DNA of 64,000 nucleotides from Oscarella lobularis (Eukaryota), in NCBI RefSeq assembly GCF_947507565.1, contig NC_089176.1, positions 4,019,882 to 4,083,881 of the forward strand. The letters run 5' to 3'. How positions within the stretch are numbered: position 1 is the stretch's first letter; every line of letters begins with the position of its first letter. The notes under the pieces are model-generated. The model worked only from the letters and a program-made list of their open reading frames with translations. It searched no databases and was not told where the DNA came from. Below, in pieces: positions 4,820 to 64,000 of the stretch. A program made the translations under genes and the position numbers.

Positions 4820-4867
4820 AGAGAAAGAGTTCTGTTCTTTTTGAGACATTAGAAATAGATGGTTAGT

Positions 4868-5010: not shown

Positions 5011-5062
5011 CGTCAGTTATGGAACTCATATATAAGATAGAGTAGTAACCTTTTCCTTCTCT

Positions 5063-7456: not shown

Positions 7457-7493
<37 letters not shown>

Positions 7494-8296: not shown

Positions 8297-8531
8297 AAAA
8301 AAAAACAATGATGACGAATTTTTTTTTTGAGTTCTTTGCTTTGATTATGTATGGGTTGAATTCAAAATTAGGGGTCTCACCTCTTGTATTGTTGTAATCT
8401 CCTGTTTCTAATTAAAAAATCAAGTATTTACAGTTTCGTTTTATGATTGATGACGTCATTCAGTATTTTTTGCCGTATCTGTGACAATGGGAAAAAGTGA
8501 AAACGATTTTTTTGGGGGAATTTTTTGAATT

Positions 8532-10537
<2,006 letters not shown>

Positions 10538-41534: not shown

Positions 41535-41852
41535 TGCGATTGTGTACACGCGACGTCGGCGATGGAATGAGATCGTGTCGCGTGGACGGGGCTAATATAC
41601 ATGCGGAGATAGGGTATTCACCAGGGGAAGTGATCACATGACACGTGACTTATGTATGGGGGTGGGTCACTAACCTTTGCTTTGCTTTTGCGTCCGTTCT
41701 TTGAAACAGATCGAATTGGAACTTTGTGGGATTACAATTTCCGCTCGATTTTTTTCTTTTTCGCGTTCGTGTCTCGTCTCCTTCGAGTTCTCCCCGTACA
41801 GCACCCCACACACTAACACTAAGATAGTTTCACTTTCGCGCCGCATGACATT

Positions 41853-44325
41853 AGTCCGATTTATCGTCGTCCCCCGAACCGGCATCGTCGTCGTCGTCTT
41901 CGTCCTCTTCCTCACTTTCGAATTCGGCTTGAGGCACGTTGTAAATTCGAATGACTGCCTTCATTAGGGAAATAAAATTAGTTTTTGCCGTGGGGTGTAC
42001 AGTAAAACTGGGGGGAAAGTACCTTATTGGGATCTTTCAATATGAGATACTTGCCCGGAGCGAGTTTCAAGAGAAGATCGACAACAACGCGTAGGATTCC
42101 CCACGAATTGTGCACATCTAAATTGATTTGAGTTGCAAAATCTTTGGGACGATACTGTTGCGTTCCAAGAATGACGTGCTTTGTCGAATTGTAAGGATGA
42201 AGTCGAGATACGTATCTAAAGTAAAGAGATAAGATCAATTGAAAGGAGGAAGAAGGTACACCGCCCATCCGCCCTCTAAAGTAGCAACTACGCGCGCCCG
42301 GACGCGAGGCGCCACGCGAGGCGGGCGGGCGGCCGGCTGTGAATCTGCGGTCGCGCGGCTGTGCGTACGTACGTCTTATATATAGAACTTACCCAAATTT
42401 TAAGAGATGGGATCCAGCAAGGATGGCTGACATGGTCCATTTAGCCAGTTTAAAGCTATTGTTCTTCAGTTCGGTTGCCAAGACGGCGCCGCGTTGAGTA
42501 TCCAATTTGTGTCGCCAATCGGAAGCGCCAAACTATATACGGTAAAGTAGTTTTTTTATAGAGACATGCACGCGATACTGAGTATCTCTTTACTATGATC
42601 TGAGGATCCCATTCGTTGAGCGCTTTGATGTTGATACATTGTATGTCCGTTGATCCGGGTGCGGGCGGGAGAGCAGCGTCGAGTTCACATCGCGCAATCA
42701 GCTGCACGTTTTCACTCAGCTGAAACTTCCGATAGCGATATCCGACGGATGCTACTTCGCCCTCTTCCTCTTCATCAACGAATGGATTGGGATCGCCGAA
42801 TTGATGAACGGCTCCCTCCTCCTCAATTTTCAAACATAATAATGAATGGAGAAAAGTGAGTTTCTTGCTTACTTTTCTCAGGACTTGCTGCGAAAAATTT
42901 TGATTTATGAATGTCGCTTCGAGAGCTAAATTCGCGGGCGCGTTCATGCTGCTTCCGTCGTCTTGAGGCGGTTCTACGGCCGTCTCATTCACAGTCATCA
43001 AATCTGAAAAATTTATTAAATTGACGTCGTCATCACGCGGCGGAGGGGACAATGTATACCGAATTGAGACTTGTCTCGCTTGTCTAGAAAAAGAAAATTT
43101 TTTCCCACTCTCTAAAAGAAGAAAAGACTTAATTAAGTAATTAATTAGAGTATACATACTTGTGCAACAATGTCCCAAGAGTAGACAGATCGCGTGCACG
43201 TCATCAGAGTAGATAATATGGCATCTGTTGCAAAGACAATCAACTCCTCCGAATCTTTATACTTTTGGCTAAGCTGTTAAATAATAATAATTATTATTAT
43301 TATTTATCACGTGAAATCCTGGTACCTCTGGTATGACGGGATCATCGGATGTTGTCACTTTGTGAAATATTCTGTTTATTCCACGAAGCGGTTTTTCATT
43401 TTTCGTATTGACGCGATCATAACTTTTATCATAGAAGCCCATGGTACCATATTGTTTCCTAAAGAAATTAATTAATTAACAAGAGTTAGTAGAAGAGAAA
43501 CATCTTTGTTACAAATCTTCAGGTTCAGGTGGATCAATTCTCAATTTCGCCAAATTCTGAAAATCAACTTCCTGCACTATTTCCCATTCTCCTTTGACTT
43601 CGACAGAAGGTTCACGCAATTTCTGAGGACCCTACGAGAAATCAATAATAATATAATTAAATCCTAATTAATTTAATGATCAATACTCTGGAATGAGAAT
43701 AATAGATTCGACCGCGTTGATTCTTTCTCCAACGTCTCTCCTGTCTCATTCGATCTCGATCTCGACTCTTCTGAGCCTTAGTCAACGGTTGAACGAGACC
43801 CTTTTCCCTTTTCTCCTTCGGCGCTCTTTGCATACGTTGCTTTTAAAAAGTTAATTAAATTAACTAATTAAATTATGTAATTATTTAATTTTACCTGCGT
43901 GATTCTTTGTCTCTGTTTCTGATAAACGGATCGTTGAACTTTGCTCGTGTCGACGAGACGATATCCGACGTCATCTTCATCGTGGATGTACGAATACATT
44001 GAACCGGCCCCGCCCCCTCCGATTTGGGGCTGGTAACGATCTGCCCCATGACAAATCGACCTTTTTTCCGCTATTTTCCTCCTTCCATGTTTACTTACTC
44101 AAGTATTTTTTGTCTGAGTAGACGCTTCCTGTCCAATCGGACGCCTAAAGTGCCGTAATTCGACGATTTTTCGTCGTATCTTCTCGTTCGAACCTTTCCC
44201 AAGCGATCGGACTTGGAAAATGGTTGATAGGGAACGTCCTTGAATTGAGACGGCACGGCGCACGGTCCCCAGCCACTCGGATTGTCCTGAATCTCGGGCA
44301 GAAGAAAGAGAGGCTTCGACGCCAT
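41853..44325 (-). CDS. EIF3D: Eukaryotic translation initiation factor 3 subunit D, multi-exon.
   Basis: N-terminus '[45 protein letters not shown]'. '[38 protein letters not shown]'. '[52 protein letters not shown]'. Acidic C-terminal tail. Confidence 0.9.
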
Positions 44326-44450
44326 CTTGCGCGTTCTCTGAAAGCACGTGGAGACGCTGTCCCGGATAACCTTCTAAACGACCAACATCAAAAACTAATA
44401 TATAGTACGCATGCATGCAAGAAAAGAAAAGTGATTTTCGCCGCTGTTTA

Positions 44451-46881
<2,431 letters not shown>

Positions 46882-47085
46882 TGCTCCGCCGTCGAGTTCT
46901 GCAGCGAAGAAGTCGAATAGCGAATGGGTTCCTATTGGGGGGCCTCACCCGGGGGTGGTGGAGGGTATTGGTTCGTTTCTGCTGGCCCGTAAGCGCCTTC
47001 GTCCATCGTTTCAGGGCGAGAAATCGATTGCTGAGCTCAAAAAAAGATCGATTCGCACACAATCACGTGTAATTTAGCGTACGCT

Positions 47086-47960
47086 ACGATTCGATGGAAG
47101 AAGATTTACGAGAAGCTTCGTGCATCGGAGACGTCAACAAGGTCGTTCAACTACTTGAAAAAGGAGTCGATATAAACAGCCAGAACAAAGTGAACGGATG
47201 GTACACCTAAAAATTGGATTTGCTGTAGAAATTGATTTGAAACAATGTGTCTAATCATCTAGGACGGCTCTTCATTGGGCTTCTAAACGAGGTCACGCGT
47301 CCATAGTATCGACTCTATTGAAACAGGGAGCAAATGCTAATATAAAATCGAGCAAAGGACAAACGCCTCGACACGTAGCAATCGATTCTCACGTACTTTC
47401 ACTCTTACCACCGCCATCATCAGAAGAACTCGATGGTCAGTCAATAATTAGGCAAGAAAAATTATATCTTATCATCTTCTTAGATGATCTTATAGTAGCA
47501 AGTGAAACTCCACTTCCATTTCTTCCTAATTATCTTGCTCATCCAGAATTTTTCTATGCAACACGTCAACGTGGAAAGGATCTAGAGGAAGTTCCCCGTA
47601 GTCCTTGTTATGAATCAACAACTAATAAGCCTTCAATAGAAGGTGGTATTGTGGTCTAATGACATGTATTGTGATTGAGAGGTGGCATTGTGAATGCGGT
47701 TTCTTTTCATAGACCACAGTCGGATTGTGAAAGTGCGTCGATTTCATCCGCTTATCAATAGCGACTTTGTAGAAATTGAAATTATTGGAGAAAAGGGCGG
47801 CGGAATTTACGCAACGCTTCTTCATAAGATTTGTTGCGAATTGAACGTTTCGCGCGACGCTGTCGCGAAACTTCGTAAATTACCTAACACCTTAGTGCGA
47901 AATGACGACGACGTTCTTAGACTGAAACCTATGCAAGAACTCGAAGTCGTTTTGAAATGA
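47086..47960 (+). CDS. ANKRD40-like protein, with an N-terminal ankyrin pair and a conserved C-terminal domain. At least three exons.
   Basis: 'MEEDLREASCIGDVNKVVQLLEKGVDINSQNKVNGW' | 'TALHWASKRGHASIVSTLLKQGANANIKSSKGQTP'. 'LPFLPNYLAHPEFFY'. C-terminus 'IYATLLHKICCELNVSRDAVAKLRKLPNTLVRNDDDVLRLKPMQELEVVL'. Confidence 0.65.
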
Positions 47961-48501
47961 TTGGGGGCCCCGCACGTGCTTGAATAATTACCCTTTAATG
48001 GAAGTCATACGCCCATCCCTAGGGACTGTGCCAGTCCCGTTCAAACCGGTTGGCTTCCTCGATGATAATCAGTGTTTTCCTTGATCGAAACCCTTGAGAG
48101 TGCGCTTCTATAGGGAATTAGGTTATAGGCACTTTTAGGGCGCGTACATCATGATGTAGACACTACGGCGGCGGTTACGTTGTTTTGAGAATTCGACGTA
48201 GATGCAAATTAGTTTTTTGACAGCATGAGCCAGTGTAAGGGCCGAAGAAATGTCTAAGAACTGTACGATACCCTACAGCGAAACTGTAATGGCTTGGCAA
48301 TGCAAAGGGATTGGGGATTCTACCTAAGGAGACCCCTCGTAAAGCGACGGTCCCTTGGCACGTGATGGGGTAGTAGGGAGGAGGCGAATTGCATCATCAT
48401 AAATTGAAGACCCGAACTGCAGAGAGCAGCACTCTTGCACCAGCCGCCGTCGCGTGCACCGGACCTTCGATATATCCGACCTCTTTTACTCACCTTCAAT
48501 G

Positions 48502-49215
48502 ATGGAACGACCACGATACAAGCGTGAGCCGTCACCAGTGAAAAAAGCCAAGCCCCTAGGCGGCGGCTCCTTCCCGTCGCGATTCAACGTTACTCTCGTC
48601 CCCTTCGCATCGTCGAGCGGCTTCTTGAGCTCGTGCAGCAGCGAATCGGACTCCAATCACTCAAGTTATACAGACTTGCAGCTTTGGCCGTCGTCCAACG
48701 ACTACGACGTCCCCGAAAACACTCGCATGCCTTTTTTACGGCCCCCGCCGCTTCAGCGACAGCGGCGACGCAAACAGCACAAAGCCGCCGCTAATTCAAA
48801 GGCTCTCCTATCGAATTCTGCTCCGGCAATCCCCGCCAAGTCGTCTGGAGTCGGCAACGATCGATGGCGACGGCACAGCGCTCCCTCGCCATCGCGACTC
48901 GATTCTCCGCTAGCCCGTCAATTATCGACGGCTCAAACGGACTTTTCTTCGCACGTGGCGGCGGCATCGCGATCGTCGCCGCCGTCGCCGCCGTCTCCAC
49001 CCACGCCGTCGTCTCGTGATCAGATAGGGAGGAGAATGGTACGGGCGGAACCGCCATCGCCGCCGCAACCGCCAGTCAAAAAGGAACTACCAGAATTTCG
49101 ACTCCCTAGTATTCAATCAAAAGGAGCGAGACTCTTGTCGAAATCTGTGACGAATTTTGCTCCGCTTTTTGCAGCGGCGGCTCAACTTCGTACGGCGACA
49201 ACGAGCGTACACTGA
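48502..49215 (+). CDS. Intronless ORF encoding a Ser/Pro-rich, low-complexity basic protein. Unknown function, weak call.
   Basis: A 237-codon open frame from the ATG at 48502. It has no recognisable domain and is GC-rich. It could equally be non-coding. Confidence 0.25.
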   Translation: MERPRYKREPSPVKKAKPLGGGSFPSRFNVTLVPFASSSGFLSSCSSESDSNHSSYTDLQLWPSSNDYDVPENTRMPFLRPPPLQRQRRRKQHKAAANSKALLSNSAPAIPAKSSGVGNDRWRRHSAPSPSRLDSPLARQLSTAQTDFSSHVAAASRSSPPSPPSPPTPSSRDQIGRRMVRAEPPSPPQPPVKKELPEFRLPSIQSKGARLLSKSVTNFAPLFAAAAQLRTATTSVH

Positions 49216-49335
49216 CGTACGTTCTAACTCTTTCCTTGATAGTCAAGACTCTTGTAGTCATTGCTAACGTTTATCGAGTGTCTGTGTATGATGACGCGCA
49301 TGCAGATTATATCTTGCATGTCATTTGCCTCTATT

Positions 49336-51497
49336 TTCCAATACAAAATTGATCGAATATGATGTCGAGAATGTCTTCGGTTCCCACTTTGCCCGTTATT
49401 CGACCCAATTCAGTTAATGCGAGTCGGACTTCCTCTGCGGCGAGAACCGTTTCCATTTCCGCTAGAGTCATATGACGGAGGTGAGTAGGACTCACTCACC
49501 CAAAATAGCACAAGGTCGCGATCAAGGTCGGCGTGTGTGAGGTCGTTGCACGTGTTGGGTGGCGTGTGAGTGCGTACACAGGTAGTGCTTACCGCATTGA
49601 GATCGATCAAGACATTCCACGCATTCTCTGAGGTGTTTTCGATGTCGACTTCGAGTGAGAGACGGAGAATCAATCAAAGGATCACCGCATCTGAAATAAA
49701 GTAATTATATAGGAATAGGGGTTTTGATTTTACAGTTTCTTTAGTTCAGATTCGAGGAGTTGAAGTAGATGATCTATTCCAGCTGACGTTGTACAGGAAA
49801 TGGAGCAGGATACATACGCCTCATTCTTGATAGACAGGAAAATAGTCCCTTCTTTTTTCCTGCTGACCCTTACTTACTTTCAACATGCTACTAATGTAAC
49901 TTTCTTCTTCCGGACTCCTCAGATCGATTTTGTTAGCGACGACGATCAAACGTGCCGCCGTTCCCACGAAATGCGACAAAGATCCAAGACAAGACGAATC
50001 AATGACAACGAGTATTAAATCAGCGTTCTCAGCTCTGAGAACGAAGAGTCAATATATATAGATATTGGCTATTATTTTTGTACTTTTCTATTGCGCGTTT
50101 GACGCCCTCTCTTTCCACGGGATCGTTTGTTTTACGCAATCCCGCCGTATCACTTACGATGACTGGATAACCGGCGATATTCAATGCTGTCTCGATTACG
50201 TCTCGCGTTGTTCCGGCGACGGGGGAAACGATAGCGGCGGGGCGTTCGCCTGAAACTGAATGTTGGCTAAATTCAATGAAGGAGGAGGGAGTTACTTAGA
50301 ATATTGAGCAAGCTGCTTTTGCCCACGTTTGGTTCTCCGACTATAGCTAATCGAACGCCGCTTCGAAGACGTTCTCCACGTCTTGCGTCGCGTAAATGAG
50401 TGCGGATTTCGTCTATGATGCTTTTGATTTCTACTCTAGCTGTGAAGGAAGAAATTTGAGGGGGAGACTAGGAGAAGGAGTTTGAGTGTTTTGCCTTTAT
50501 CTAAGATATTGTCTTCTATGTCTTCACTCTCGCCAAAATCAATTGTTGCTTCGTAATAAGCTAAGCACTGTGAAGAATTCGCGATTAAATGGTTTCGTTG
50601 TTTCTACAGTACCTTGGCTAGAGAATTAGTCCATTTTGAATAGACTTTACTTAGGTGTCCCTAGGGTAGGTATGAGGATAATGTACATGTAATCTTGTGC
50701 TATTAACCTCCATCTGTCTCAATGCTTGTCGTCGTTGAACTTCCGTTTCGGCGTTAATTAAATCGGCCAAGCCTTCTACTTCCGTGAGATCAAATTTCCC
50801 GTTTAGAAATGCTCTAATTATTTAGTTAATAAATAAATAAATAAATAAATAAATAAATAGTGGGAGTGGAATGAGTGCGTGCCTCTTTGTGAATTCCCCG
50901 GGTTCTGCGTATCTTATGCCTTTTATAGACTGTAGTAGATCGGTCAAGGCAGATAGAACGGCTATGCTGCCATGCACGTGATATTCTACCACGTCTTCTC
51001 CTGTAAAACTGTTAGGGCCTACACAGTGTTACAAAGGTCATTCACATATAATGTACAGGGTCTTACGTGGAAACCAGAGAGCAATGGCTTTGTCAATGAG
51101 TTCATGCGTGACCGGATTGACGAGTTTTGTCAGTGTAGCTACTCTTGCTTGTGGAAGATGGTCCATTTTGCAAATATCTCGTAGAGTCTGGAGGCAGGAA
51201 AAACTGGAGGGATTGTCGGACTATCTGAGGTCGTACTTTAGAGGCCAAAGGCCCTGATACTCGAACAACAGCTACGCCTGTAAGGAGAGTGAGCTAGAAA
51301 TGTAGTAGAAGTAGAGAAGATTGCAATTCCCACCGCATTTTCCATGACCAGATGATAAAGCGAATATCGTAGGCGACCAATTTCTGTCACAAAACCGTCG
51401 CAAAAATACCAATTGCGCTCTGCAGTGTCGTTTGGCAGATTCGAAGCAAATAAATTGCTGCGAAGAAAGGAAAAGTTTTCTGAATAATACGGGCATT
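49336..51497 (-). CDS. GTPBP3: Mitochondrial tRNA-modification GTPase GTPBP3 (MnmE/TrmE homolog), multi-exon.
   Basis: N-terminal '[13 protein letters not shown](V)AVVRVSG'. '[14 protein letters not shown]', '[27 protein letters not shown]', '[12 protein letters not shown]', '[24 protein letters not shown]'. G domain '[39 protein letters not shown]', '[11 protein letters not shown]'. C-terminus '...[13 protein letters not shown]'. Confidence 0.8.
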
Positions 51498-51784
51498 TTT
51501 CCTGATGGCACGCAGCATAGATACACGCCGTAAGTCGTTTTCTTATAGTCTGTCCGCGTCTTACAGATTAGGCTTTCACCCGATGGGACCTCTACGATTA
51601 ATTTCCAATGCGTCTACGCGTCGTCCTACGAGGGTGCCGAGTCCTCGTGATTCTAAACTTCATCCCGAACTAAAGAAATCCTCAGATGAATGCATGGTGG
51701 ATTGATGGAACGTGCCAAGCGCCAAAACATTGTTTCGTGCTCCAGTGACGTCCCATCGGGGCCCCCTAGCTCCGTTGTTGATCT

Positions 51785-54120
51785 TTGTCTGGCAGTTGCG
51801 CTTTGACGTCGTTTCTTTGTTTAGACTATGAGGTCTTCCTTTTGTGCACGGAAACGTTTAAAGAATTGATGACAAACGTGCAGGAGAATCTTGCTGCTGA
51901 GGAGCATGGTATCAAGGCATTTTACGCCCCAACTAGCATTGATTGGGGCGGTTATCAAAGCGCTGCTATTGAAGAAGCGATTACGCAGTCCTCTCACGCT
52001 GTTATCATTTATTCCGATATACAAGATAGCTGTTGGACTTCTATTAGAGAGTCTATAGTTTGGAGGCAAATGTGCACCAAGCTAATCAAAGAATTGCCCT
52101 TAAGACCGCCTAATGTTTCTGAAGGCGACATCATAAGAACTATGCCGCTTTCTGCATCTAGGAAATTTAAAGAAGTTACTACTGAAACGTCTCCTACGAC
52201 GCTGGCGAAAAATATTGCTAAGGCGGTCAGAAACGAAAAGCAAGCTCCTTCTTCTAAATTGAGAGGCCAAGCTGATAAGAGGGTTGTTGTTCTTGACGAT
52301 GAGCCGTTCTGCCAAGATATATATAAGTAAGTATGCCCAAATAGGCCCAGTAGTTTTAGTTTGCAAATTCTTTAAATGGCTAGAGGTGTTTTCGTACGTA
52401 ATCAAAAGAAACGTTTGGTGGCTGTCAGAAAAGCTCTTTTGAATGACAAACGGATGAGAAATGAAATTGATATCTTGCAAGAATCAAGCAAATGCGACAA
52501 TTTGATTGGATTTATTGATGCCGTGGTAAGTCTACCATGTAGCGAGGACGTGTATTAGATGTCTACTGCAGACGATTGACACCGTTTGGCACTGCTGTCT
52601 TCAATATTGTGCATATTCAGTAGAACAAGTAGGTGCCCAGTCATCATAAATGCCATACGCGATGTGTATTCCTTTCATTTATTTGCAGTATGTACTTGAG
52701 AAGGCCCTACAGGACGTTATTGACGAAATTGACATTGTTCGTGGTGTTGCTAATGGCTTAGACTATCTTCACAGCAGGAAAAAACCGATAAGTAAGATGC
52801 CGTGTCCTTAATTAAGGTCATATTCGCTTTAACAATTAACTAATTAGCTCATATAAATCTCGCCCCTGCTGGCGTACGTATAATGGTGGAGGAAGACAGA
52901 AAGGCAGAAGCAAAAATTTGTGATATAAGTACTTCGCCCAGATTGTACGAACATGCAATGGAAGGATTCATTGTCAGAACAGTAGATGTGGGTAGGTGGG
53001 GCTGTGTGTTAGTATCTTACTTTTTGCAGAATCCGAGTCCTTATGTGGATGTCTTTTCGTTTGGATGCTTTGCGTACTACGTCATCACAAAAGGAGAGCA
53101 TCCGTTCAGTAAACCGGGGAGCGGGAGCAGTAAGCGAAGCGAAATTCAGTCAAGAATAGACTCTGGCGAGCATAAACCTACTTTCAAAGCGTTGGAAGGT
53201 GAGTTAATTAATTAATTAATTAAACGCGTATTTAGTGCGGCTTTAATTAATATTTTAGATTTGGTGAACGAAAGCATGCAACCGAAGGTGGATGAAAGCA
53301 GAGAAGCGGGGTTGAAAGAAAAAATTAGACGTATAGGGAATCCAGCAGCAGCTTTGGAGCTTGTGAAATCTACGTTAGGCAAAGGAAAAAAGTGAGTTTG
53401 CCTGTCAGTGCGTGCCTTCTCAGCAGATGCAGCTCGTTGCTGTGAACGCCTAGGCCTTCATCTTGCTGTATTAAAAGTCACTGTTACTTTTTCGAGCCGG
53501 CTCGCCAAGTTGATTTTCATACTGTACGTGGTGGTAATCATTATTCAACTTCATTGCTGTTACGGTTTCTACACAGAAATTTGGCTCTTGTACACCATTT
53601 TATGAAGAGATGGATCCTAAGATGGATCCTAAGAGTGCGAACGTGCGGCACTGGCTTTTGGACGAATTGGCTAACCATGATGAAGAAGTCCTTGGTTCTA
53701 CCACGTTGTGGGGAGCTAAATTTAAATATTTGGAAGCAAAAGGAGGTAGTGTTCTCGTAGTTACTTCTCATTAACTCTTTGTTAAAAGCGTTTCTAGATT
53801 TTCTAAAGAAGTGTGAAAATAGGTGCGATACATACGGAAATTCCGTGCAATCCCTTTCAAAATTCCTGCGTAATCAAGTACGAAACTTTGTGTTTTCAAA
53901 AAATAAACTAACTATAGGACGATACGTATAGTTCTGCCACGAACTTAACGATGACAAAATAGAAGAATTTTTTCAATTGACGAATGAAAAGAAAGCAGTG
54001 TTTCTCAACCGTGGGTTTCCCCGACTTCTTCCTGTATGCTGGGAGATAAGCAAGAAAGTACCCAATTTGTCTGTGTATGGGTATCACTGCAAGAAGCATT
54101 CGGCAATCACCTTTTCATGA
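51785..54120 (+). CDS. Kinase-like gene, probably a pseudokinase, with an unknown N-terminal domain. Multi-exon, and the structure is uncertain.
   Basis: Exon 1 is ORF 51785-52330 and has no known domain. Then 'RLVAVRKALLND...EIDILQ', 'GLDYLHSRKKPI', and 'HINLAPAGVRIMVEEDRKAEAKICDISTSP' (HRD becomes HIN, DFG becomes DIS), then 'DVFSFGCFAYYVITKGEHPF'. Further exons run to '...VFLNRGFPRLLPVCWEISKK...*' at about 54120. Confidence 0.4.
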
Positions 54121-54232
54121 CATCTCGGACTCTAGCCTTTTTTTTTTTAGTTTTTACGCTGTTGCACTCACTGGCTGTTTTTCTTTCGCTTTGTATGTTG
54201 TTATTGATTTATACGGGCATTTTCACGTGGAG

Positions 54233-54913
54233 ATGTTGCTGGTTGGCCTTTCAGGCGGAATAGCAAGCGGTAAAAGCACCGTTTCGCGACTATTGTTGGA
54301 TTGCGGATGTCCTATCATCGACGCCGATCAAATAGCTCGCCAAATCGTGCAGCCGGGCTTGCCTAGCTGGCACGCGATCGTTCGCAAATTTGGCCGAGAA
54401 ATTTTGAACGAGGACGAAACGATAAATCGCGAAAAACTCGGAAAAATCATATTTGATGATCCAGCTAAGCGAAGAGTGCTGAACGGTTGCACGCATCCGG
54501 CCATATTACGCAGAATGTTGTGGCAAATTTTGACGAATTTTATTCGAGGAGAAAAAGTCGTAATCTTAGATTCTCCGCTTTTGTTTGAGAGTGGAACGTT
54601 TGTTCGATACGTTCATCGTACAATTGTTGTATGGTGTTGCGAGGAAAGGCAAATTGAGAGACTTTACCTTCGAAATGGATTTGATAGAGACAGCGCTCTC
54701 AAGAGAATTTGTGCTCAAATGCCATTGGACGAAAAGCGTCGAAGGGCTACGTACGTTATTGATAATGACGGTCAACTAGAAAATACAAGACAGCAAGTTC
54801 AAGAAATTTACAAAGAACTCATCAAGTCGAAGTGGTGTTTGATGGGAAGGATTTTTAGACTGTCTTGTTCTTTTCTTATAGGACTTTTTGTAGCTCTATG
54901 GTTTCTGTCGTAA
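54233..54913 (+). CDS. Dephospho-CoA kinase (CoaE)-like P-loop protein with a hydrophobic C-terminal tail. Copy A, intact, single exon.
   Basis: 'MLLVGLSGGIASGKSTVSRLLLDCGCPIIDADQIARQIVQPG...AIVRKFGREILNEDETINREKLGKIIFDDPAKRRVLNGCTHPAI...VVILDSPLLFESG...TIVVWCCEERQIERL' follows the dephospho-CoA-kinase fold pattern. The tail is 'CLMGRIFRLSCSFLIGLFVALWFLS*'. Confidence 0.7.
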   Translation: MLLVGLSGGIASGKSTVSRLLLDCGCPIIDADQIARQIVQPGLPSWHAIVRKFGREILNEDETINREKLGKIIFDDPAKRRVLNGCTHPAILRRMLWQILTNFIRGEKVVILDSPLLFESGTFVRYVHRTIVVWCCEERQIERLYLRNGFDRDSALKRICAQMPLDEKRRRATYVIDNDGQLENTRQQVQEIYKELIKSKWCLMGRIFRLSCSFLIGLFVALWFLS

Positions 54914-55041
54914 TGATAGCACGGAATCTGAATTTCTGGAAGGTAGACCGTACTGTAAGACGGACTGGGCGTAGCCGGCGTGGGCGTAGCCGGCGTGGGC
55001 GTAGCGAAGGGTACAGTACAGTATGTACGGGAATTGCAAAG

Positions 55042-58000
55042 ATGGCGAATGCGGTCGAAAACGCGGCGACGGCGGAGCAACTAAACTACACGAACCCTTT
55101 GTCGTCGAAAAGTGATCAAGCACACGATCGTTTAGGAGCCGATATGGTTACCCGTGACCTGCTTATAAAAGCGTCGAAGAGAATCGCCTCGGTTTGGGAG
55201 AGCATTGCGAGACACCTTGACGTTCCTGAAGAAAGAATTAAAGCGATTCTTTGTGACTCTAATTTCAGAAATTTAGAAAAAAAGGCCTACGAAATGTTGG
55301 ATAAGTGGTGGGAAAAGAATTACAAAGAAGCCACGGAGGCGAAACTGTGTCTTGCTCTGTTGAGTGAAGAAATGACAGCAACGGCATCGGATCTCTTTGG
55401 AGACGAACTTGTTGAAGCTTTGAAGAGTTCAAAAAAAGGTAAGACTGATGTGATGGCTTATTTCGTCTTCTACACACTAATGATTATCGAACAGGTAGTA
55501 CCTTTTCCCAGCCCCAGAAGCAGCAAATCCAGCGCAACGGAAGTGATCTCGACACGACATCATTTGGGTCTAGAAAGGAAGAAATGAGAGCATCCTTTTC
55601 TAGCACAGAGTCGACTAAGCTCACAAGCAGCCAGGTAGGGGAAACAGATGGGAGAGAAACACAAAGTGAGCTGTTTTTGCTAACAATCTTTATTCATAAA
55701 TTGTGCTCTGCAGAACCAGTCATGTCTACTGAAGGGGCGTACGCACTTGGAGACGAAAATAAAGCATTCTGTACAGGTGATGGTGAGTGAATTAAAATTT
55801 TAGGGAATCGACGGATACGACTAGATTGTTTTGGTAGAGTTTTTGCGGCAAGGCTATCTGCAAAACAGATGCCTTTTGAGCTCACCGAAACCATTTTTTG
55901 GAAGGAAAAAAATTAGCGAAGATGTTGTCAACGCAGTAGAACAAAGGACGCCCGTTTGCTGGATTTGGGGTCCTCCCGGATGTGGAAAAAGTGCCGTCGC
56001 AATTAATGTTGTTCACAATCTAAATAAATCAGGCAACTATTCAATACCAATGTTCTTGGAAGAACCAAGCAACGTGAAACAAGTGGAGGAATTTATAATG
56101 TTGCATCTAAAGCGCGCTGAAACGTTTCAATCATACAAAGTGTTTTTTATTGACAAATGTTACACCATGTTAAAAAAGGAAGACGAGGAGGAGAAGTTTG
56201 TTGAAGCGATGGAGCGACTTTCTAAGTCTCATCCTCATGCGTTCACAGTTATAATTACAGCGTACGAAAAGCCTTCACTTCACTACAAACTCAACATCAG
56301 CTCACTAAAAGTCTCATGGCCTGACAGAACAGAAGCGGTCGAACTATTGGCCTTGAGCTGCAGAGGCGTCGACGTTAACGCAGTTAAAAATCACTACTAT
56401 CTAACCCAACTGCTTGCGTCTTGCTGCTGTAGAATGCCTTTTGCTATTATTGCTGTTGGATCAGTCTGGGTCGAGCGGCTTGAGTCCACCACAGATGTAC
56501 CTGCGTCTCTGCGAGAGCAACTTGAGTGCTTCCGTAATAGACACTCACTGTTTCAAGACTTTTGTGAAAATTTTGATAGCAAAAGGAGAGTTCTTCAAAA
56601 GTGCTTTGAAAAGTTTTATTTGTATTTATCTGCCGACTTGCAGAAAGCTCTTCGCTGTCTTTCGGTTGTTAACGGATCTTTTAGCAAAAACTGTGGAGAA
56701 CGATTTCTTGGTAAAGACGTTACTCAAGGAAAAATAACTAGTTTGTTGATGCTCGGTATTCTTGAGTCAGAAGAATGTCATCATTACTCTATACCGGATC
56801 TTTTTCGTCAGTATGTACTGACTCTAAGTGATCATCAGGACGCGCACGAACGTGCGAGAGCGGCGTATTGCAAGTATATAAAAAAAGTAATGGTTCAAAT
56901 GTGGAAAAATCGTAAAAGCGCGAAAGCATTAGAGATTTTTCAAGCCAACAGAAGAAGAATTGAAGGATTTTTAGAGGATTCTACTTCAATTGAAAGCGAC
57001 GCTGGTAAGAGTCTTGCCCTTGTCATTTGTATGACGGAGTACTCAATAGACGGCAAAGTGCTGCTAGAATGCACTTCGCCTTCTATTATCTGCCAATTTT
57101 GCAAATCGTGCCTAAAAAGCTCGCGTTTTCATGAAGAAGACCGTTTACATGTCTCTTTATTCTACGCTCAAGTCCTCCTACATCGGTGTCCGAGGCGTCG
57201 TATTGATGCGATTGATCGACAGCTTTCATTTTGTAAAACTCATTTGGAAGCGTTGTCAGCAGACAAGCAAGAGAGTTTCAGAACAAGATACTTGGTAACA
57301 TTGGTTGAATTGTGTTTGGTGAAGGGAACGAGCTTACTAGACGAAGATTTGGATGAAATAGAGAAGCAGAAGAGACTGCAGAATAAGGCTGCGCGACTAG
57401 CTGCAGCAAAAGCGCGCTTTCAACTGGGCGCGATGAGTTATGGAAAAGATGTCGATAGAGCACACGGTCATTTGAACGAGGCTGTTAGACACTTCAGAGA
57501 GTGCCGGGATGAACTACGCGAGACAGACTGTTCTAGATGTTTACATCAAATGTGGATTGGTGATTGTCTCTTTCGAAAGGGAAACTACAAAGACGCTCTC
57601 GGCGTTTTCAATGATCTATTGAAGGAGATAGAAGAAGTGTCTTGGCCTGGCGAAGGCGTTGAAACCAAAGACAGAAAAAACATGCGTATCTCTGCTATCT
57701 GTTATGCTCAAGGTTTGTCTCAAACTCTGCACTGTTTTGCTGAGAATTCTGGATGGAATGCCGATCAGCTGAAAGAGTGCCTTAAGTTGTTCGAGTCTTC
57801 GCTTGAATATATCCGAAATTGCTCCAACTCACCTTTTCTGCATTTTATTTACCTGGCAAAAGGAAAGCTGCATTTGTTGCTTTTTCTATGTGGAGAAGAA
57901 CATGATTCTAAACAATTGGAGTTGGCAACTCAATGCTTTGAAAAAGCGGCCGAAAATGACCGTATTCAATGTGAAGCCTCTTCTTTTGAGAAGATCTGCA

Positions 58001-58653
58001 ATGCTCCAGGCAAACTTTCAACGAAGAACATTTTTGATTCGGCCAAGATATTTCTTCCTTCAAGCGGCGGCTTTGTCAACATGCAAGAACTTTTCAAAAG
58101 CTGTAAGCGGCGGAACGAAGCGTTAGATCCTTACAAATCTCTCGGAATAAGTCTTTTTGCAAATTCTGCTTTGTATCTGGACAGCTTAAAAAGGGAACGG
58201 AGCAAAGAAGTAGTGTCGCTAGAAAAGGAAGACGTCGACTTCGAGTTTTCTGATGAGGACGACGACGAGGAAGAGGAAGAGGAAGAGGAAGAGGAAGGGG
58301 TTTGGTGGGAAAATGATGTAAAAGCTCAAACCGAGTTTCCAGACGAGAATTCTTCACGTAGGTTATTAATACCATCTAATTGCTTTCGGTCTCTGTCTCT
58401 TTTTGAGCAACACCAACTCTGTCGTCGAAGTAGTGAATCGCGTGGGAATACCAATACTCTAACCAATTTCGATAGTAGCCTCAGTCAGTGGCAAGTCTCA
58501 AGTTATGCTGCTGGTGATGGTGGCGGTGGTCTAGAAAAAAGGGAACGAATTGATCAGAAGTCTATTGGTATTCGCAGTCAAGATGACGAGAGCTCGTTGG
58601 AACTGATATCTTTAGTGGCTGAGCCTCCAACTATGTCAAAATCGCCGCCTTAA
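55042..58653 (+). CDS. NLR-like receptor: death domain, then a STAND P-loop NTPase (NB-ARC/NACHT-like), then TPR-like helical repeats, then an acidic tail. Three exons: 55042-55438, 55495-55782 and 55838-58653.
   Basis: Death-domain exon 'LLIKASKRIASVWESIARHLDVPEERIKAILCDSNFRNLEKKAYEMLDKWWEKNYKEATEAKLCLALLSEEM'. Walker A 'VCWIWGPPGCGKSAVAI'. Walker B 'KVFFIDKC'. A long alpha-helical repeat region follows. Poly-E tract 'DEDDDEEEEEEEEEEEG'. Splice phases were checked (1, 1, 0). Confidence 0.7.
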
Positions 58654-58711
58654 GATTTATTTTAAGTGGACTGAACAATGTTGCTAAGGCATCGCTACTT
58701 TTTCAGCCGTT

Positions 58712-59420
58712 TAGAAATGCTCTAATTATAATTATTTAGTTAATAAATAAATAAATAAATAGTGGGAGTGGAATGAGTGCGTGCCTCTTTGTGAATTCCC
58801 CGGGTTCTGCGTATCTTATGCCTTTTATAGACTGTAGTAGATCAGTCAAGGCAGATAGAACGGATATGCTGCCATGCACGTGATATTCTACCACGTCTTC
58901 TCCTGTAAAACTGTTGGGGCCTACACAGTGTCACAAAGGTCGTTCGCCTATAATGTACAGGGTCTTACGTGGAAACCAGAGAGCCATGGCTTTGTCAATG
59001 AGTTCATACGTGACCGGATTGACGAGTTTTGTCAGTGTAGCTACTCTTGCTTGTGGAAAATGGTCCATTTTGCAAATATCTCGTAGAGTCTGGAGGCAGG
59101 AAAAACTGGAGGGATTGTCGGACTATCTGAGGTCGTACTTTAGAGGCCAAAGGCCCTGATACTCGAACAACAGCTACGCCTATAAGGGGAATGAGCTAGA
59201 AATGCCGTACTATAGAAGATTGTATTTCCCACCGCATTTTCCATGACCAGATGATAAAGCAAAGATCGTAGGCGACCAATTTCTGTCGCAAAAACATCGC
59301 AACTGTTGCAGAATTGCTCGATGACGTCGTTTGACCGATTTGAAGCAGAGAAATTGTGGCCAAGAAGGAAAACGTCGATTGAATAATACGGGCATGTCTT
59401 TTCTAACGTGCGTCTTGCGA
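58712..59420 (-). pseudogene. Duplicated fragment of the GTPBP3 5' region (promoter, exon 1, exons 2-3). It is a paralogous copy of 50806-51530.
   Basis: Near-identical sequence. Compare ORFs 58874-59086 and 58914-59159 with 50972-51184 and 51051-51257. 59210-59458 (-) encodes '[18 protein letters not shown]' as in GTPBP3 exon 1. No downstream GTPBP3 exons follow. Confidence 0.6.
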
Positions 59421-59424
59421 CGAG

Positions 59425-60003
59425 ATGTTGCTGGTTGGCCTTTCGGGCGGGATAGCAAGCGGTAAAAGCACCGTTTCGCGAATACTGTTGGACTGCGGAT
59501 GTCCTATCATCGACGCTGATCAAATAGCTCGCCAAATCGTGCAGCCGGGCTTGCCTAGCTGGCACGCGATCGTTCGCAAATTTGGCCGAGAAATTTTGAA
59601 CGAGGACGAAACGATAAATCGCGAAAAACTCGGAAAAATCATATTTGATGATCCAGCTAAGCGAAGAGTGCTGAACGGTTGCACGCATCCGGCCATTTTA
59701 CGCAGAATGTTGTGGCAAATTTTGACGAATTTTATTCGAGGAGAAAAAGTCGTAATTTTGGATTCTCCGCTTTTGTTTGAAAGTGGGACGTTTGTTCGAT
59801 ATGTTCATCGTACAATTGTTGTATGGTGTTGCGAGGAAAGGCAAATTGAGAGACTTTATCTTCGAAATGGATTTGATAGAGACAGCGCTCTCAAGAGAAT
59901 TCGTGCTCAAATGTCATTGGACGAAAAGCGTCGAAGGGCTACGTACGTTATTGATAATGACGGTCAGCTGGAAAATACAAGACAGCAAATTCAGGAAATT
60001 TGA
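59425..60003 (+). CDS. Dephospho-CoA-kinase-like copy B. It is truncated: a stop follows 'QQIQEI' and it lacks the hydrophobic tail.
   Basis: About 95% identical to copy A over 'MLLVGLSGGIASGKSTVSRILLDCG...TRQQIQEI*'. It sits directly after the duplicated GTPBP3 5' fragment. Confidence 0.55.
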   Translation: MLLVGLSGGIASGKSTVSRILLDCGCPIIDADQIARQIVQPGLPSWHAIVRKFGREILNEDETINREKLGKIIFDDPAKRRVLNGCTHPAILRRMLWQILTNFIRGEKVVILDSPLLFESGTFVRYVHRTIVVWCCEERQIERLYLRNGFDRDSALKRIRAQMSLDEKRRRATYVIDNDGQLENTRQQIQEI

Positions 60004-60049
60004 TGAGTACTGTATTCCTTTCATTTATTTGCAGTACGTACTCAAGAAG

Positions 60050-61480
60050 GATTGAGCGTATGACACCCTAAAGGGCGTTGTCAATGAAATTGGGATTGTT
60101 CGTGGTGTTGCTAGTGGCTTAGACTATCTTCACAGGAGGGAAAAACCGATAAGTAAGGTGCTTAGCTTAGGTTTCTCAAGTAAGCCACTTTAATAACAAT
60201 TAATTAGCTCGTATAAATCTCACCCCCTGCTGGCGTACGTATAATGGAGAAAAACGGAAAGGCAGTAGCGAAGATTTGTGTTACAAGTACTTCGTCCGAA
60301 TTGAATGAACAGGCAATTAATTGCAATGGAAGGATTCATGTCTCCTGAATTCACCGTCAGAACAGTAGATGTGGGTAGGCGGGGCTGTGTGTCAGTGTCT
60401 TATTTCTGTAGAATCCTGATGCGGATGTCTTTTCGTTTGGATGTTTTGCGTACTACGTCATCACGAAAGGACAGCATCCATTCTGTGAACCGGGGAGCGG
60501 GAGCAGTGAGCGAAGCAAAATTCAGTCAAGAATAAACTCTGGCGAGCATAAACCTACTTTCGAAGCGTTGGAACGTAAGTTAATTAATCAATTGATTAAT
60601 TAAACACGTATTTAGTGCCGCTTTAATTAATATTTTTAAAATTTACTCTACGTAGATTTGGTGAGCAAAACCATGAAACTGGAGGTGGAAGAAGACGAAC
60701 TTAGACGTATAGGGAATCCAGCAGCAGCTTTGGCGCTTGTGAAATCTACGTTGGACGAAGGAAAAAAGTGAGTTTGCCTGTCAGTGCGTGCCTTCTCAGC
60801 AGATGCAGCTCGTTACTGTGAATAGGCCTTCATCTTGCTGTATTACAAGTCACTGTTACTTTTTCAACCCGGAACGCCAATGCCATTTTCATCATGTACG
60901 TGGTAATCATTACTCAACTTCGTTGTTGTTACGATTTCTACGCAGGATTTTGGCAATTGTACACCATTTTATGAAGGGAAGAGAACTGGTAATATGGACA
61001 TGGACCCGCTTTTGGACGAACTGTCTGAACACGAAAAAGAAGTCTTTGGTTCTACCAAGTGGGGAGTTCGACTTCTAAGTTTTGGAGCAAAAATAGAAAT
61101 TGAAAATGGTATTGTTTTCTCATAGTTAGTTCTTATCAACTCTTTGTTAAAAGCGTTCTAGATTTTCAGTTCAAGGTTGCATTTAAGGGTAAGGGCGGGA
61201 GAGATGCAGCCAAAAAGTACGACAATTCCATTCAAGGTTTTTCATATTTCCTGCGTGATCAAGTATGAAACTTCGTGTTTTCAAAAATAAACGAACTACA
61301 GAATGATACATGTAGTTTTCTCACGAACTTAACGATGAGAAAAAAAGAGAATTTTGGGAATCGGATGATAAGAAAGCATTGATGCTCAACCGTGGGTTTC
61401 CCAGGCTTCTTCCTGTGTGCTGGGACATAAGCAAGAAAATGCCCAATTTGTCCAAGTATCACTGCGACGAGAAGCATTAG
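60050..61480 (+). pseudogene. Degenerate second copy of the kinase-like gene, paralogous to about 52690-54120.
   Basis: Recognisable remnants 'GIVRGVASGLDYLHRREKPI', 'KICVTSTSSELNEQAINCNGRIHVS', 'VLRTTSSRKDSIHSVNRGAG', 'MLNRGFPRLLPVCWDISKKMPNLSKYHC', with frame disruptions. Confidence 0.4.
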
Positions 61481-61757
61481 ACAATGACCTCTTCATGATA
61501 TCTCTGCCTCTAACCCTTTTTCTAGTTCTACATTTTTACACTGTCAGTTGCACTCACTGACTGTTTTTTTTCTTCGTTTTATACTGTATGTCGTTAGTCT
61601 ATATGGATGCTGCTGGCCGGTCACTACTAATTAACCGTTCTCGGTATTTAATTAACGAAAGCTGTCCGAGGCTACCTGATGATGTACAGTACAGTGGAGA
61701 GGGCGTGCACTAGCCACCCCCGCGTACGGGAGTACGGGAGTGAGATTTCGATCCAAG

Positions 61758-62021
61758 ATGGCGACTGCGAGCGAAAGAGACAGGGTTCCCAAAAGGCATC
61801 GCCTTCGGGCGGTGGCCAGCTACATCGGCCCATACTGGGAGCATATCGCTGACCACCTTCTACTCGAGTCCTCTTGTGAAAGGACCATTGAGAGGATTCG
61901 CCGTGATTACAAGTTCTCTCAAGATCAAGCTTTCCAAATGTTGTGCACGTGGTCGGAAATGTTTCATACGGAAGCTACAGAGGAGAAACTGTGCCTTGCT
62001 CTATTAAGCGAAGAGTGCTGA
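61758..62021 (+). CDS. Small death-domain-only ORF (DD-2).
   Basis: 'MATASERDRVPKRHRLRAVASYIGPYWEHIADHLLLESSCERTIERIRRDYKFSQDQAFQMLCTWSEMFHTEATEEKLCLALLSEEC*' has a death-domain-like pattern (W..IA..L, qAf.ML..W, ATxxxLxxAL). Confidence 0.45.
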   Translation: MATASERDRVPKRHRLRAVASYIGPYWEHIADHLLLESSCERTIERIRRDYKFSQDQAFQMLCTWSEMFHTEATEEKLCLALLSEEC

Positions 62022-62449
62022 ACGGTTGCACGCATCCGGCCATTTTACGCAACATGTTGTGGCAAATTTTGACGAATTTCATTCGAGGAGAAAAAGTCGT
62101 AATTTTGGATTCTCCGCTTTTGTTTGAAAGTGGAACGTTTGTTCGATACATTCATCGTACAATTGTTGTATGGTGTTGCGAGGAGAGGCAAATTGAGAGA
62201 CTTTATCTTCGAAATGGATTTGATAGAGACAGCGCTCTCAAGAGAATTCGTGCTCAAATGTCATTGGATGAAAAGCGCCAAAGAGCTACGTACGTTATTG
62301 ATAATAACGATCAGCTGGAAAATACAAGACAGCAAACTCAACAAATTTACAAAGAACTCCTCAAGTCAAAGTGGTGTTTGATGGGCAGGATTTTTAGACT
62401 GTCTTGTTCTTTTCTTATAGGTCTTTTTGTAGCACTATGGTTTCTGTGA
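62010..62449 (+). pseudogene. C-terminal half of a dephospho-CoA-kinase-like copy (copy C), fused out of frame onto the end of the DD-2 exon.
   Basis: 'RRVLNGCTHPAILRNMLWQILTNFIRGEKVVILDSPLLFESGTFVRYIHRTIVVWCCEERQIERL...CLMGRIFRLSCSFLIGLFVALWFL*' has no P-loop half. The junction sequence 'ttaagcgaagagtgctgaacgg' is shared with copy A ('ctaagcgaagagtgctgaacgg'). Confidence 0.5.
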
Positions 62450-62523
62450 TAATACATTTAATTGGATTTATGAATTAGTGAGCCAGTGACGCGCGAGTCG
62501 TTTATACGGGAATTGCAACGAAC

Positions 62524-62926
62524 ATGTCGTCGAAACTGCCGCACGATCTAGCCGCCGGCGCTGGACAGAAATTGCCAAGTGCGATTCGTCGTCTCAAGGA
62601 TAGAGGGAATGGTTGTAGTAGCGTAGAACGATTTTACAGACGAGATACTTCTCGACCTCGCGAAGAAAATCGGCGGAAAGTGGGATTTTGTAGCAGTCCG
62701 GCTTGGGTTGGCAGATCACGAAACTGAGAATATCCGTGACAATTTCACGAAAGTGCAAGACCGAGCTTTTGAAATGTTGAAGACGTGGCGACAGAATGCC
62801 TTCAAAGACGCAACTCGTACCAATCTCTGTATCGCCTTGCTTAAAGAAAAATTGAAGAGTATCGCGTCGGAAACTTTTGGGGATGACTTTGTTGAAGGGG
62901 TCGACAAATCATTATCGCAGAAGTGA
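62524..62926 (+). CDS. Death-domain protein DD-3. Probably two exons, with a very short intron at about 62608-62636.
   Basis: 'MSSKLPHDLAAGAGQKLPSAIRRLKDRGN' | 'EILLDLAKKIGGKWDFVAVRLGLADHETENIRDNFTKVQDRAFEMLKTWRQNAFKDATRTNLCIALLKEKLKSIASETFGDDFVEGVDKSLSQK*'. Confidence 0.45.
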
Positions 62927-63089
62927 AGGTGATTTTCAAGAAACACGATGATTTGTCCAAGTATCACTGCGAGAAGCATCCGACAGTGTGATATCTCTGC
63001 TCTAGCTCTTTTTCTAGTTTTTACGCTGTTACTTTCTTTCTTTTGCTTTTTGTTATTATCATACGGGCATGTTCAATGTGGATACAGTA

Positions 63090-63300
63090 GCAAGCGGCGA
63101 AAGCACCGTTTCGCGAGTACAGTTGGATTGCGGATCGACGCCGATCAAATAGCTCGCCAAATCGTGCAGCCGGGCTTGCCTAGCTGGCACGCGATCATTC
63201 GCAAATTTGGCCGAGAAATTTTGAACGAGGACGAAACGATAAATCGCGAAAAAGTCGATCCAGCCAGCTAAGCGAAGAGTGCTGAATGGTTCCAGCTATT
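63090..63300 (+). pseudogene. Decayed dephospho-CoA-kinase-like fragment (copy D) with internal deletions.
   Basis: '...ASGESTVSRVQLDCGSTPIK', then 'IARQIVQPGLPSWHAIIRKFGREILNEDETINREKVDPAS*', then 'AKRRVLNGS' in shifting frames. Confidence 0.45.
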
Positions 63301-63410
63301 TTACGCAGCACTTCACGAGTAGTCTGGAGGCCACACCTATGCCACGGTCACGTGCAAGGGTCAGGTGACCTGACTACTTCACGAGCGAGTCGATTATACG
63401 GGAATTGCAA

Positions 63411-63805
63411 CAAACATGGCGGCGCACGTCGGGGCTGGAGAAGAATTGTCAGGTACAATCCGTCGTCCCAAGGATAGAGAATGATTGTAGCAGCGTAGAA
63501 ACGATTTTACAGATAAGACACTTCTCGACGTCGCGAAGAAAATCGGCGGAAAGTGGGATTTTGTAGCAGTCTGGCTTACGCCCAAGTTGGAAGAGCATGA
63601 AATTGACAATATCAAAGCCAATTTTACGAGAGTACAAGACCAAGCTTTTGAAATGTTGAAGATGTGGCGAAAGAATGGCCACAAAGCTGCAACTCCTACC
63701 AATCTCTGTGTCGCCTTGCTTGAAGAAAAGTTGAAGAAAATCGCGTCGGAAACTTTTGGGGATGACTTTGTTGAAGGGGTCGACAAATCATTATCGCAGA
63801 AGTGA
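63411..63805 (+). CDS. Death-domain protein DD-4, a paralog of DD-3 with the same two-exon layout.
   Basis: 'MAAHVGAGEELSGTIRRPKDRE...' | '...LLDVAKKIGGKWDFVAVWLTPKLEEHEIDNIKANFTRVQDQAFEMLKMWRKNGHKAATPTNLCVALLEEKLKKIASETFGDDFVEGVDKSLSQK*'. The last 72 residues are about 80% identical to DD-3. Confidence 0.45.
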
Positions 63806-64000
63806 AGGTGATTTTCAAGAAACACGATGATTTGTCCAAGTATCACTGCGAGAAGCATCCGACAGTGTGATATCTCTGCTCTAGCTCTTTTTCTAGTTTT
63901 TACGCTGTTACTTTCGTTCTTTCTTTTGCTTTTTGTTATTATCATACGGGCATGTTCAATGTGGATACAGTAGCAAGCGGCGAAAGCACCGTTTCGCGAG

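Follow-up and report, generated by a model that had tools for sequence, protein, structure and literature searches.

How did the 5' part of a gene for GTPBP3, a mitochondrial tRNA-modification GTPase, come to lie immediately in front of a dephospho-CoA kinase (DCAKD) gene in the homoscleromorph sponge Oscarella lobularis? The arrangement is found within a stretch of 64,000 nucleotides (nt) of contig NC_089176.1 (assembly GCF_947507565.1, forward strand, positions 4,019,882 to 4,083,881), which was analysed as a whole and is called the window hereafter. A first-pass annotation of this DNA had proposed that a segmental duplication moved the promoter and first exons of GTPBP3 in front of a DCAKD-like copy, and had pointed to a sequence motif at the junction as a recurrent recombination site. 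We find instead that the junction between the two genes is native and that the region 58707-60001 is a copy of a head-to-head gene pair, GTPBP3 on the minus strand and DCAKD on the plus strand, truncated at both ends. As explanation of the locus we favour, with a probability of roughly 0.75, that this native pair was copied at the DNA level as a unit within a rearrangement-prone gene cluster of immune type.

Results

The junction between GTPBP3 and DCAKD

Self-BLAST of the window bore out that the 5' part of GTPBP3 is duplicated at the DNA level and that the second copy abuts a copy of DCAKD. The segments 50799-51496 and 58707-59395 align with 90.87% identity over 701 aligned columns. The first-pass annotation had set the ends at 50806-51530 and 58712-59420, thus locating the duplication correctly but missing its left ends by a few bases and overshooting on the right by about 30 nt: homology between the GTPBP3 copies ends exactly at the CAT of the start codon (51496 and 59395, respectively) and position 51530 is not reached. 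From the end of the second GTPBP3 copy (G2) to the ATG of the adjoining DCAKD copy (copy B, 59425) there are 29 nt (59396-59424).

The window could be compared with a second haplotype. Its part 49425-64000 is 100% identical to a locus (L001) of the 108-kb contig ena:ERZ18545485:ptg000371l, which runs 6 kb past the window and encodes exactly the product of 192 amino acids (aa) of 59425-60003. Because of this contig match and the identity of DCAKD copy A (see below) with XP_065826875.1, we assign the window to the host: it is nuclear DNA of O. lobularis. Judging by their names (ptg or atg at the start, l at the end) we take the contigs to come from a hifiasm long-read assembly, with ptg for primary and atg for alternate contigs. 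The haplotig atg000654l (locus L002) is an alternate contig of the same assembly. Since its positions 1-9973 are colinear with 41486-51496 of the window at 98.4% identity, it represents the second allele of this region, which includes GTPBP3 in its entirety.

On this alternate haplotig a complete GTPBP3 gene stands head to head with a complete DCAKD gene of 226 aa (P0001, full length, 97% identical), and the two ATGs are 27 nt apart (L002 9974-10000). The alignment of L002 9291-10581 with 58707-60006 of the window runs unbroken across the junction at 96.1% identity, and in a three-way alignment the junction sequence of L002 is the same as that at 59382-59430. Since L002 has both genes complete in the same arrangement, we conclude that this junction is the native one and that 58707-60001 was copied from the pair. 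GTPBP3 sequence was thus not moved in front of a DCAKD copy; the two genes were copied together.

The truncated copy of the pair is 1.3 kb long and lies 7.9 kb from the intact genes. Its left breakpoint (58707) is situated 15 nt into GTPBP3 exon 5 and 53 nt past the stop codon of a STAND NTPase gene. On the right, homology breaks at 60001, corresponding to nt 577 of DCAKD, where the sequence is joined to a copy of a kinase-containing block (K2, see below). Both ends are junctions of unrelated sequence that share 2 nt at most, with no extended homology. As the start codons of GTPBP3 and DCAKD are only 27-29 nt apart, their 5' untranslated regions (UTRs) must either be extremely short or extend in antisense into the neighbouring gene.

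Intact and truncated copies of GTPBP3

The intact gene, G1, occupies 49331-51496 on the minus strand. Exon 1 extends over 51334-51496, exon 2 over 51237-51277, exon 3 over 51067-51187 and exon 4 over 50883-51018; exon 5 starts at 50813. The C-terminus (...FCIGK) finishes at 49334 and is followed by the stop codon at 49331-49333. When spliced by hand, G1 gives a product that matches the NCBIfam model for MnmE (NF003661) with 509 bits (cutoff 380) as well as the Pfam domains TrmE_N, MnmE_helical and MMR_HSR1, and the C-terminal CIGK is present. The duplicated part (50799-51496) comprises exons 1-4, introns 1-4 (48-69 nt in the duplicated part) and the first 15 nt of exon 5.

In G2 (58707-59395, minus strand) the exons lie at 59233-59395, 59139-59179, 58969-59089 and 58785-58920, followed by the 15 nt of exon 5 at 58707-58721. 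Their lengths equal those in G1, every GT/GC-AG splice site is retained, and there is neither a frameshift nor a stop codon. We rejected an origin of G2 as a retrocopy because all four introns are kept (53, 49, 48 and 63 nt). The spliced open reading frame (ORF) encodes 159 aa, namely the mitochondrial presequence and the full TrmE_N domain, and reaches a TGA directly past the breakpoint. Pfam TrmE_N is matched over its whole length in G1 (E 1e-38) and in G2 (E 2e-36). It is the only family domain of G2, which is a fragment and not a functional member of the GTPBP3/MnmE family. A homologue search with the G2 product returned nothing above 58% identity, and in it no predicted protein was found for G1, G2 or the alternate allele.

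Intron 4 (50869-50882 in G1, 58771-58784 in G2) has an apparent GC donor, GCACGC, which reads GCGCGC in the alternate allele; the GC donor is kept in all three copies. The same intron contains an (AATA)n run of variable length. This run is the only tandem array that touches the GTPBP3 repeat: between 48000 and 64000 we detected neither Rfam families nor tRNAs, nor any other relevant tandem array.

Divergence between the copies

The overall identity of 90.9% between G1 and G2 is a composite of about 97% in exons 2-4 and about 79% in exon 1 and intron 1. Left of about position 51285, G1, G2 and the alternate allele are approximately equidistant and differ by a few percent of substitutions. In the remaining part (51286-51496, intron 1 and exon 1) the alternate allele sides with G2 at 40 variable sites, compared with 4 at which it sides with G1. 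Here G1 and G2 differ at 48 of 226 positions, corresponding to 21% divergence over 51271-51496. In the only intact GTPBP3 gene of the primary haplotype, exon 1, which encodes the mitochondrial presequence, is about 21% diverged in DNA sequence from its counterpart on the alternate haplotig, compared with about 98% identity elsewhere in the gene.

Synonymous (dS) and non-synonymous (dN) divergence, estimated by the Nei-Gojobori method, follows the same partition. For exon 1, dS is about 0.5 between G1 and either G2 or the alternate allele, and 0.086 between G2 and the alternate allele. For exons 2-5 all three pairs fall between 0.03 and 0.05, which is the level of allelic difference in this individual. 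In these exons G1 and the alternate allele are separated by 0 non-synonymous and 4 synonymous changes, G2 and each of the other two by 4 non-synonymous and 2 synonymous changes. The counts are small and point to relaxed constraint on G2. Sites private to G2 correspond to the G1 coordinates 50962, 51040, 51044, 51083, 51106 and 51157.

DCAKD copies and fragments

Copy A (54233-54913, plus strand) is a full-length, single-exon gene of 226 aa (CoaE E 3e-58; TIGR00152 175 bits). Its product is 100% identical to XP_065826875.1, annotated as 'dephospho-CoA kinase-like [Oscarella lobularis]', and bears a hydrophobic C-terminal tail, as animal DCAKD does. Next among the named relatives comes Corticium candelabrum, with 59%. 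An ANKRD40-like UBL exon that lies upstream of GTPBP3 and DCAKD in the window (47808-47951) is syntenic with the DCAKD locus of this species (L004 340-483; 52% aa identity, E 2e-11).

Copy B (59425-60003, plus strand, 192 aa) has a complete CoaE domain (E 4e-59). Over 580 nt, 54230-54809 of copy A and 59422-60001 of copy B are 96.7% identical by self-BLAST, and both copies span CoaE positions 2-179 of 180 including the P-loop. A TGA follows directly after the right breakpoint, so that the hydrophobic tail found in copies A and C, in the alternate allele and in Corticium is missing from B. Between A and B dS amounts to 0.126 and dN/dS to 0.07. The alternate DCAKD resembles B up to about nt 490 and copy C from there on, including the sequence downstream. 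Copy B has very few private changes, at DCAKD nt 93 and 570, and its own constraint therefore cannot be read.

Only the 3' part of the gene, from codon 79 to the stop, is present in copy C (62005-62449, plus strand). It covers CoaE positions 78-179 and lacks the half with the P-loop; self-BLAST aligns 62005-62447 with 54466-54908 of copy A at 93.7%. A Death-domain exon is fused to copy C out of frame, and at this join (61992-62021) up to 11 nt (TAAGCGAAGAG) are common to both parent sequences, which suggests a microhomology-mediated join.

Two further DCAKD-derived units are located at the right end of the window on the plus strand: F1 (63061-63310), a 5' fragment that shows a vestige of the motif ATACGGGCAT discussed below and internal deletions, and F2, which begins at 63944 and runs out of the window. 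The F units carry deletions; in the self-BLAST 54261-54440 and 63088-63257 match at 90.6%. They belong to a series of about three tandem units of about 880 bp that covers 62553-64000 and continues on L001 to about 15720. A unit combines one Death-domain exon and the kinase-block end with the ATACGGGCAT vestige and a DCAKD 5' fragment that carries deletions; within the window 62553-63117 and 63427-64000 are 89.9% identical by self-BLAST.

Upstream of copy A an ORF of 278 aa (54077-54913) leads from the end of the kinase block, which encodes a hydrophobic stretch, in frame into DCAKD. A read-through or fusion product of the block end and DCAKD-A may thus be encoded; RefSeq annotates the 226-aa protein only.

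The recurrent motif and the TIR/kinase block

The first-pass annotation was right that a motif is shared by GTPBP3 and the sequences upstream of DCAKD-like copies: the 10-mer ATACGGGCAT has five plus-strand sites (51487, 54211, 59386, 63061 and 63944), compared with 0.04 expected in the window. The full 14-mer AATAATACGGGCAT is exact at 51483 and 59382 only, and the three other sites show 2 mismatches. Its nature is a different one than had been assumed. Read as its reverse complement, AATAATACGGGCAT becomes ATGCCCGTATTATT, the GTPBP3 start codon with the codons next to it (M-P-V-L); no in-frame ATG is located upstream of this start codon. What had been taken for a GTPBP3 5' UTR at 51483-51497 is therefore the start of the coding sequence in antisense. 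The motif is found directly upstream of the DCAKD 5' fragments at 63061 and 63944, and it recurs upstream of DCAKD pieces because of common ancestry: instead of marking a recurrent recombination site, the first codons of GTPBP3 have been carried along upstream of every DCAKD-derived piece. Nor does a relocated GTPBP3 promoter fit the data, as the copied segment ends at the start codon and adds neither promoter nor 5' UTR to what its native neighbour DCAKD already supplies.

In the primary haplotype the start codon of G1 and DCAKD-A are separated by a block of 2.7 kb, K1 (51497-54210, plus strand), with TIR-like and kinase-like sequence (Pfam TIR E 9e-4, Pkinase E 6e-7, both below the gathering cut-offs). 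The first ORF of K1 starts at 51505, only 8 nt from the GTPBP3 ATG. A motif in the kinase-like exons, DVFSFGCFAYYVITKGEHPF, resembles IRE1/RNase L.

The block is flanked by a direct repeat. Its left copy, ATACGGGCATTTT(T)C at 51487-51500 (plus strand), includes the GTPBP3 start codon in antisense; the right copy, ATACGGGCATTTTC at 54211-54224 (plus strand), lies 12 nt upstream of the DCAKD-A ATG. ATACGGGCATTTT is exact at both 51487 and 54211, and the immediate flanks read ATACGGGCATTTTTC on the left and ATACGGGCATTTTC on the right. Both the L002 junction and the G2/B junction are without the block and thus represent the empty site. Given the direct repeat and the empty site at two junctions, the simplest reading is that K1 is an insertion into an old GTPBP3/DCAKD spacer that would have generated a target duplication of 10-13 nt. 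We had also considered a 3-nt gap after the CAT in the flanks of G1 and DCAKD-A as support for a target duplication, and dropped it when the F units turned out to have CATGT, as the native spacer does. The DCAKD locus of Corticium also contains an exact ATACGGGCAT (L004 5335), which was dismissed as a chance occurrence: the site is non-coding and precedes the sequence for an unrelated cysteine-rich protein.

A second, 5'-truncated copy of the block, K2, is located at 60002-61610 (plus strand). It has about 78% identity to 52662-54187 (self-BLAST: 52705-54187 versus 60066-61572, 78%) and has a vestige of the DCAKD start (ATGCTGCTGGCCGG) at its end. The end of the block recurs at 54142, 61528, 63009 and 63888. 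No poly(A) is present at the block end, and we found no inverted repeats of at least 40 nt between 48000 and 64000.

The surrounding gene cluster

The copies are embedded in Death-domain exons, STAND/AAA NTPase genes with TPR and the TIR-like ORF and kinase-like exons described above. The gene whose 3' end precedes the left breakpoint of the pair copy encodes a STAND/AAA NTPase with TPR of 940 aa (55831-58653, plus strand). Genes of this type behind Death domains (55831-58653; L001 18482-20579; L002 11563-18766) diverge strongly between neighbours and between haplotigs, with 29-32% identity, and this is also the protein identity of the STAND genes that follow the two copies. Downstream of DCAKD the two haplotigs are scarcely alignable as DNA. 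With only 29% identity between the STAND genes that follow, the 7.9-kb unit as a whole cannot stem from one simple, recent tandem duplication. Other dispersed and tandem repeats of the window (82-5017 and 12978-14983, 76-90% identity) are unrelated to the duplication of GTPBP3 and DCAKD.

Discussion

According to the explanation we favour, a native divergent pair of GTPBP3 (minus strand) and DCAKD (plus strand) would have been copied as one piece of DNA and cut on the left within GTPBP3 exon 5, which became joined to the 3' end of the STAND gene, and on the right at DCAKD nt 577, which became joined to K2. Both halves of the copy would thereby have become gene fragments, GTPBP3 being reduced to presequence and TrmE_N and DCAKD losing its hydrophobic tail. 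An insertion of the TIR/kinase block between the two start codons, presumably an old one, would have separated intact GTPBP3 from DCAKD-A in this haplotype. The junction between the block end and DCAKD would have been copied onward after the insertion, and DCAKD pieces that were later copied from this interrupted version would carry the ATACGGGCAT vestige. Two lineages of the pair, interrupted and uninterrupted, probably coexisted, and a non-homologous unequal exchange or a duplication may have set both in tandem in this haplotype. Exons 2-4 of GTPBP3 could have been homogenised later by recombination or gene conversion.

Several observations weigh against this reconstruction. In Corticium candelabrum there is no GTPBP3 within 8 kb of DCAKD; a tblastx comparison of the GTPBP3 region with the Corticium locus L004 and with the Logan contigs L006 and L008, which carry the DCAKD homologue P0002, gave no match. 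The tight pairing is consequently documented only within O. lobularis. Exact-protein look-ups of the 278-aa and 192-aa ORFs matched only the same contig, and those of DCAKD-A (226 aa) and the RefSeq protein P0123 had no match. The polarity of the TIR/kinase event is our interpretation, and a microhomology-mediated deletion between the repeat copies would give the same uninterrupted form. Finally, with STAND genes that are only 29% identical, no one-step model can do justice to the history.

The polarity could indeed be the reverse. If the order GTPBP3, TIR/kinase block, DCAKD were ancestral, the tight junction would have arisen by deletion between the ATACGGGCAT repeats and the alternate haplotype would be a derivative formed by unequal homologous recombination of G1 with G2 and of copy B with copy C. 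Such an origin, by two homologous deletions in a primary-like haplotype, would be expected to leave the patterns observed in the alternate alleles, where GTPBP3 resembles G1 or is equidistant on the left and resembles G2 from intron 1 on, and where the 5' part of DCAKD resembles B and the 3' part C. The pair copy with later exchange that we favour fits this recombinant pattern equally well, however, and reverse polarity needs the GTPBP3 start-codon region to share 10-13 nt by chance with a site that precedes the DCAKD ATG by 12 nt (for the 10-mer, 0.04 occurrences are expected per window). It also leaves unexplained why only 12 nt remain upstream of DCAKD-A when the spacer at the G2/B junction and in L002 measures 27-29 nt. 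We regard reverse polarity as unlikely. A somewhat lower likelihood is given to the idea that the fragments function as new genes whose expression is driven by the native flanks they have kept: a G2 with presequence and TrmE_N only, and a tail-less, soluble DCAKD-B. G2 does keep its splice sites and an open frame of 159 aa that ends right after the breakpoint, and B has a complete CoaE domain with dN/dS of 0.07-0.15 against A and the alternate allele. This low ratio, however, mostly reflects divergence between functional lineages, B's private changes being very few, and G2 shows 4 non-synonymous and 2 synonymous private changes where the full-length alleles show 0 non-synonymous ones. Outside this assembly we found no matching predicted protein or transcript-derived contig. 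The TrmE_N domain mediates dimerisation of MnmE. Were the fragments transcribed, a G2 protein could conceivably modulate GTPBP3 and B could act as a soluble DCAKD, as haplotype-specific genes born by partial duplication of a pair; we consider this quite doubtful. If it were true, the separated intact genes would also show promoters outside the spacer.

That the second copy is an assembly artefact, either a false duplication or a chimeric join, has to be considered in a region rich in repeats with two strongly different haplotypes. The two copies are 9% apart, however, each has substitutions and indels of its own, and the alternate allele is identical to neither; the 21% divergence over 51271-51496 is beyond the allelic level. 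Both ends of 58707-60001 join unrelated sequence, which an overlap-based long-read assembler is not expected to produce, and from the hifiasm-style names reads long enough to span 7.9 kb would be expected. An artefact is very improbable on these grounds. The proposal from which we started, a duplication that created a new junction by placing the GTPBP3 promoter and first exons before a DCAKD copy at a recurrent recombination motif, accounts for the duplicated 5' segment abutting DCAKD-B and for the recurrence of the 10-mer at the 5' edge of DCAKD pieces. It can hardly be upheld when the same junction exists with both genes complete on the alternate haplotig, when the motif is the start-codon region of GTPBP3, and when the copied GTPBP3 segment stops at the ATG and so includes no separate promoter or 5' UTR. 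The further suggestion of the first-pass annotation, that GTPBP3 and the P-loop gene use a common core promoter in opposite directions, came close to the truth in that the two genes are divergent native neighbours.

We therefore return to a copied and broken native pair. The phenomenon is a familiar one, namely truncated duplicate gene fragments in a rearrangement-prone, haplotype-polymorphic cluster, and no new promoter fusion is involved. The copy resembles duplicated non-processed pseudogenes of such clusters in its retained introns, its intragenic breakpoints with little or no homology, its private non-synonymous changes and its mosaic identity. It is unlike typical duplicated pseudogenes in that the duplicated unit is a divergent pair of housekeeping genes inside a Death/STAND/TIR-kinase cluster, and in that the extra copy is present in one of two haplotypes of a single individual. 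With regard to the family models, G1 and DCAKD-A match those of GTPBP3/MnmE and DCAKD/CoaE at full length, G2 retains presequence and TrmE_N only, B is tail-less, and C and the F units are without the P-loop or carry deletions.

Bidirectional gene pairs are usually defined by less than 1 kb between transcription start sites. GTPBP3 and DCAKD are like such pairs in being divergent, with a junction conserved in two haplotypes and in the duplicated copy. They differ in that their spacing of 27-29 nt, which is measured between start codons, is far shorter. The region shared by the two genes is evidently dispensable or replaceable, because the intact genes are separated in the primary haplotype. 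As for the element that separates them, the 2.7-kb block is like insertions with target-site duplication in its direct repeat of 10-13 nt and in the empty site on the other haplotype and in the duplicated pair. We could assign it to no known class of transposon or retrocopy, as it has TIR-like and kinase-like exons with introns and neither terminal inverted repeats of at least 40 nt nor poly(A).

For annotation the locus carries a warning: DCAKD-B, DCAKD-C, the F units and GTPBP3-G2 are fragments, which automatic pipelines may call as genes. The record is corrected in that there is no fusion, and that a native gene pair was copied and broken. For the compact genome of this sponge an unusually tight divergent pair of housekeeping genes, one of them (GTPBP3) mitochondrial, can be recorded. 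Between the haplotypes of one sponge there is gain or loss on a kilobase scale as well as mosaic recombination in a cluster of Death, STAND and TIR-kinase genes, with fragments of housekeeping genes carried along.

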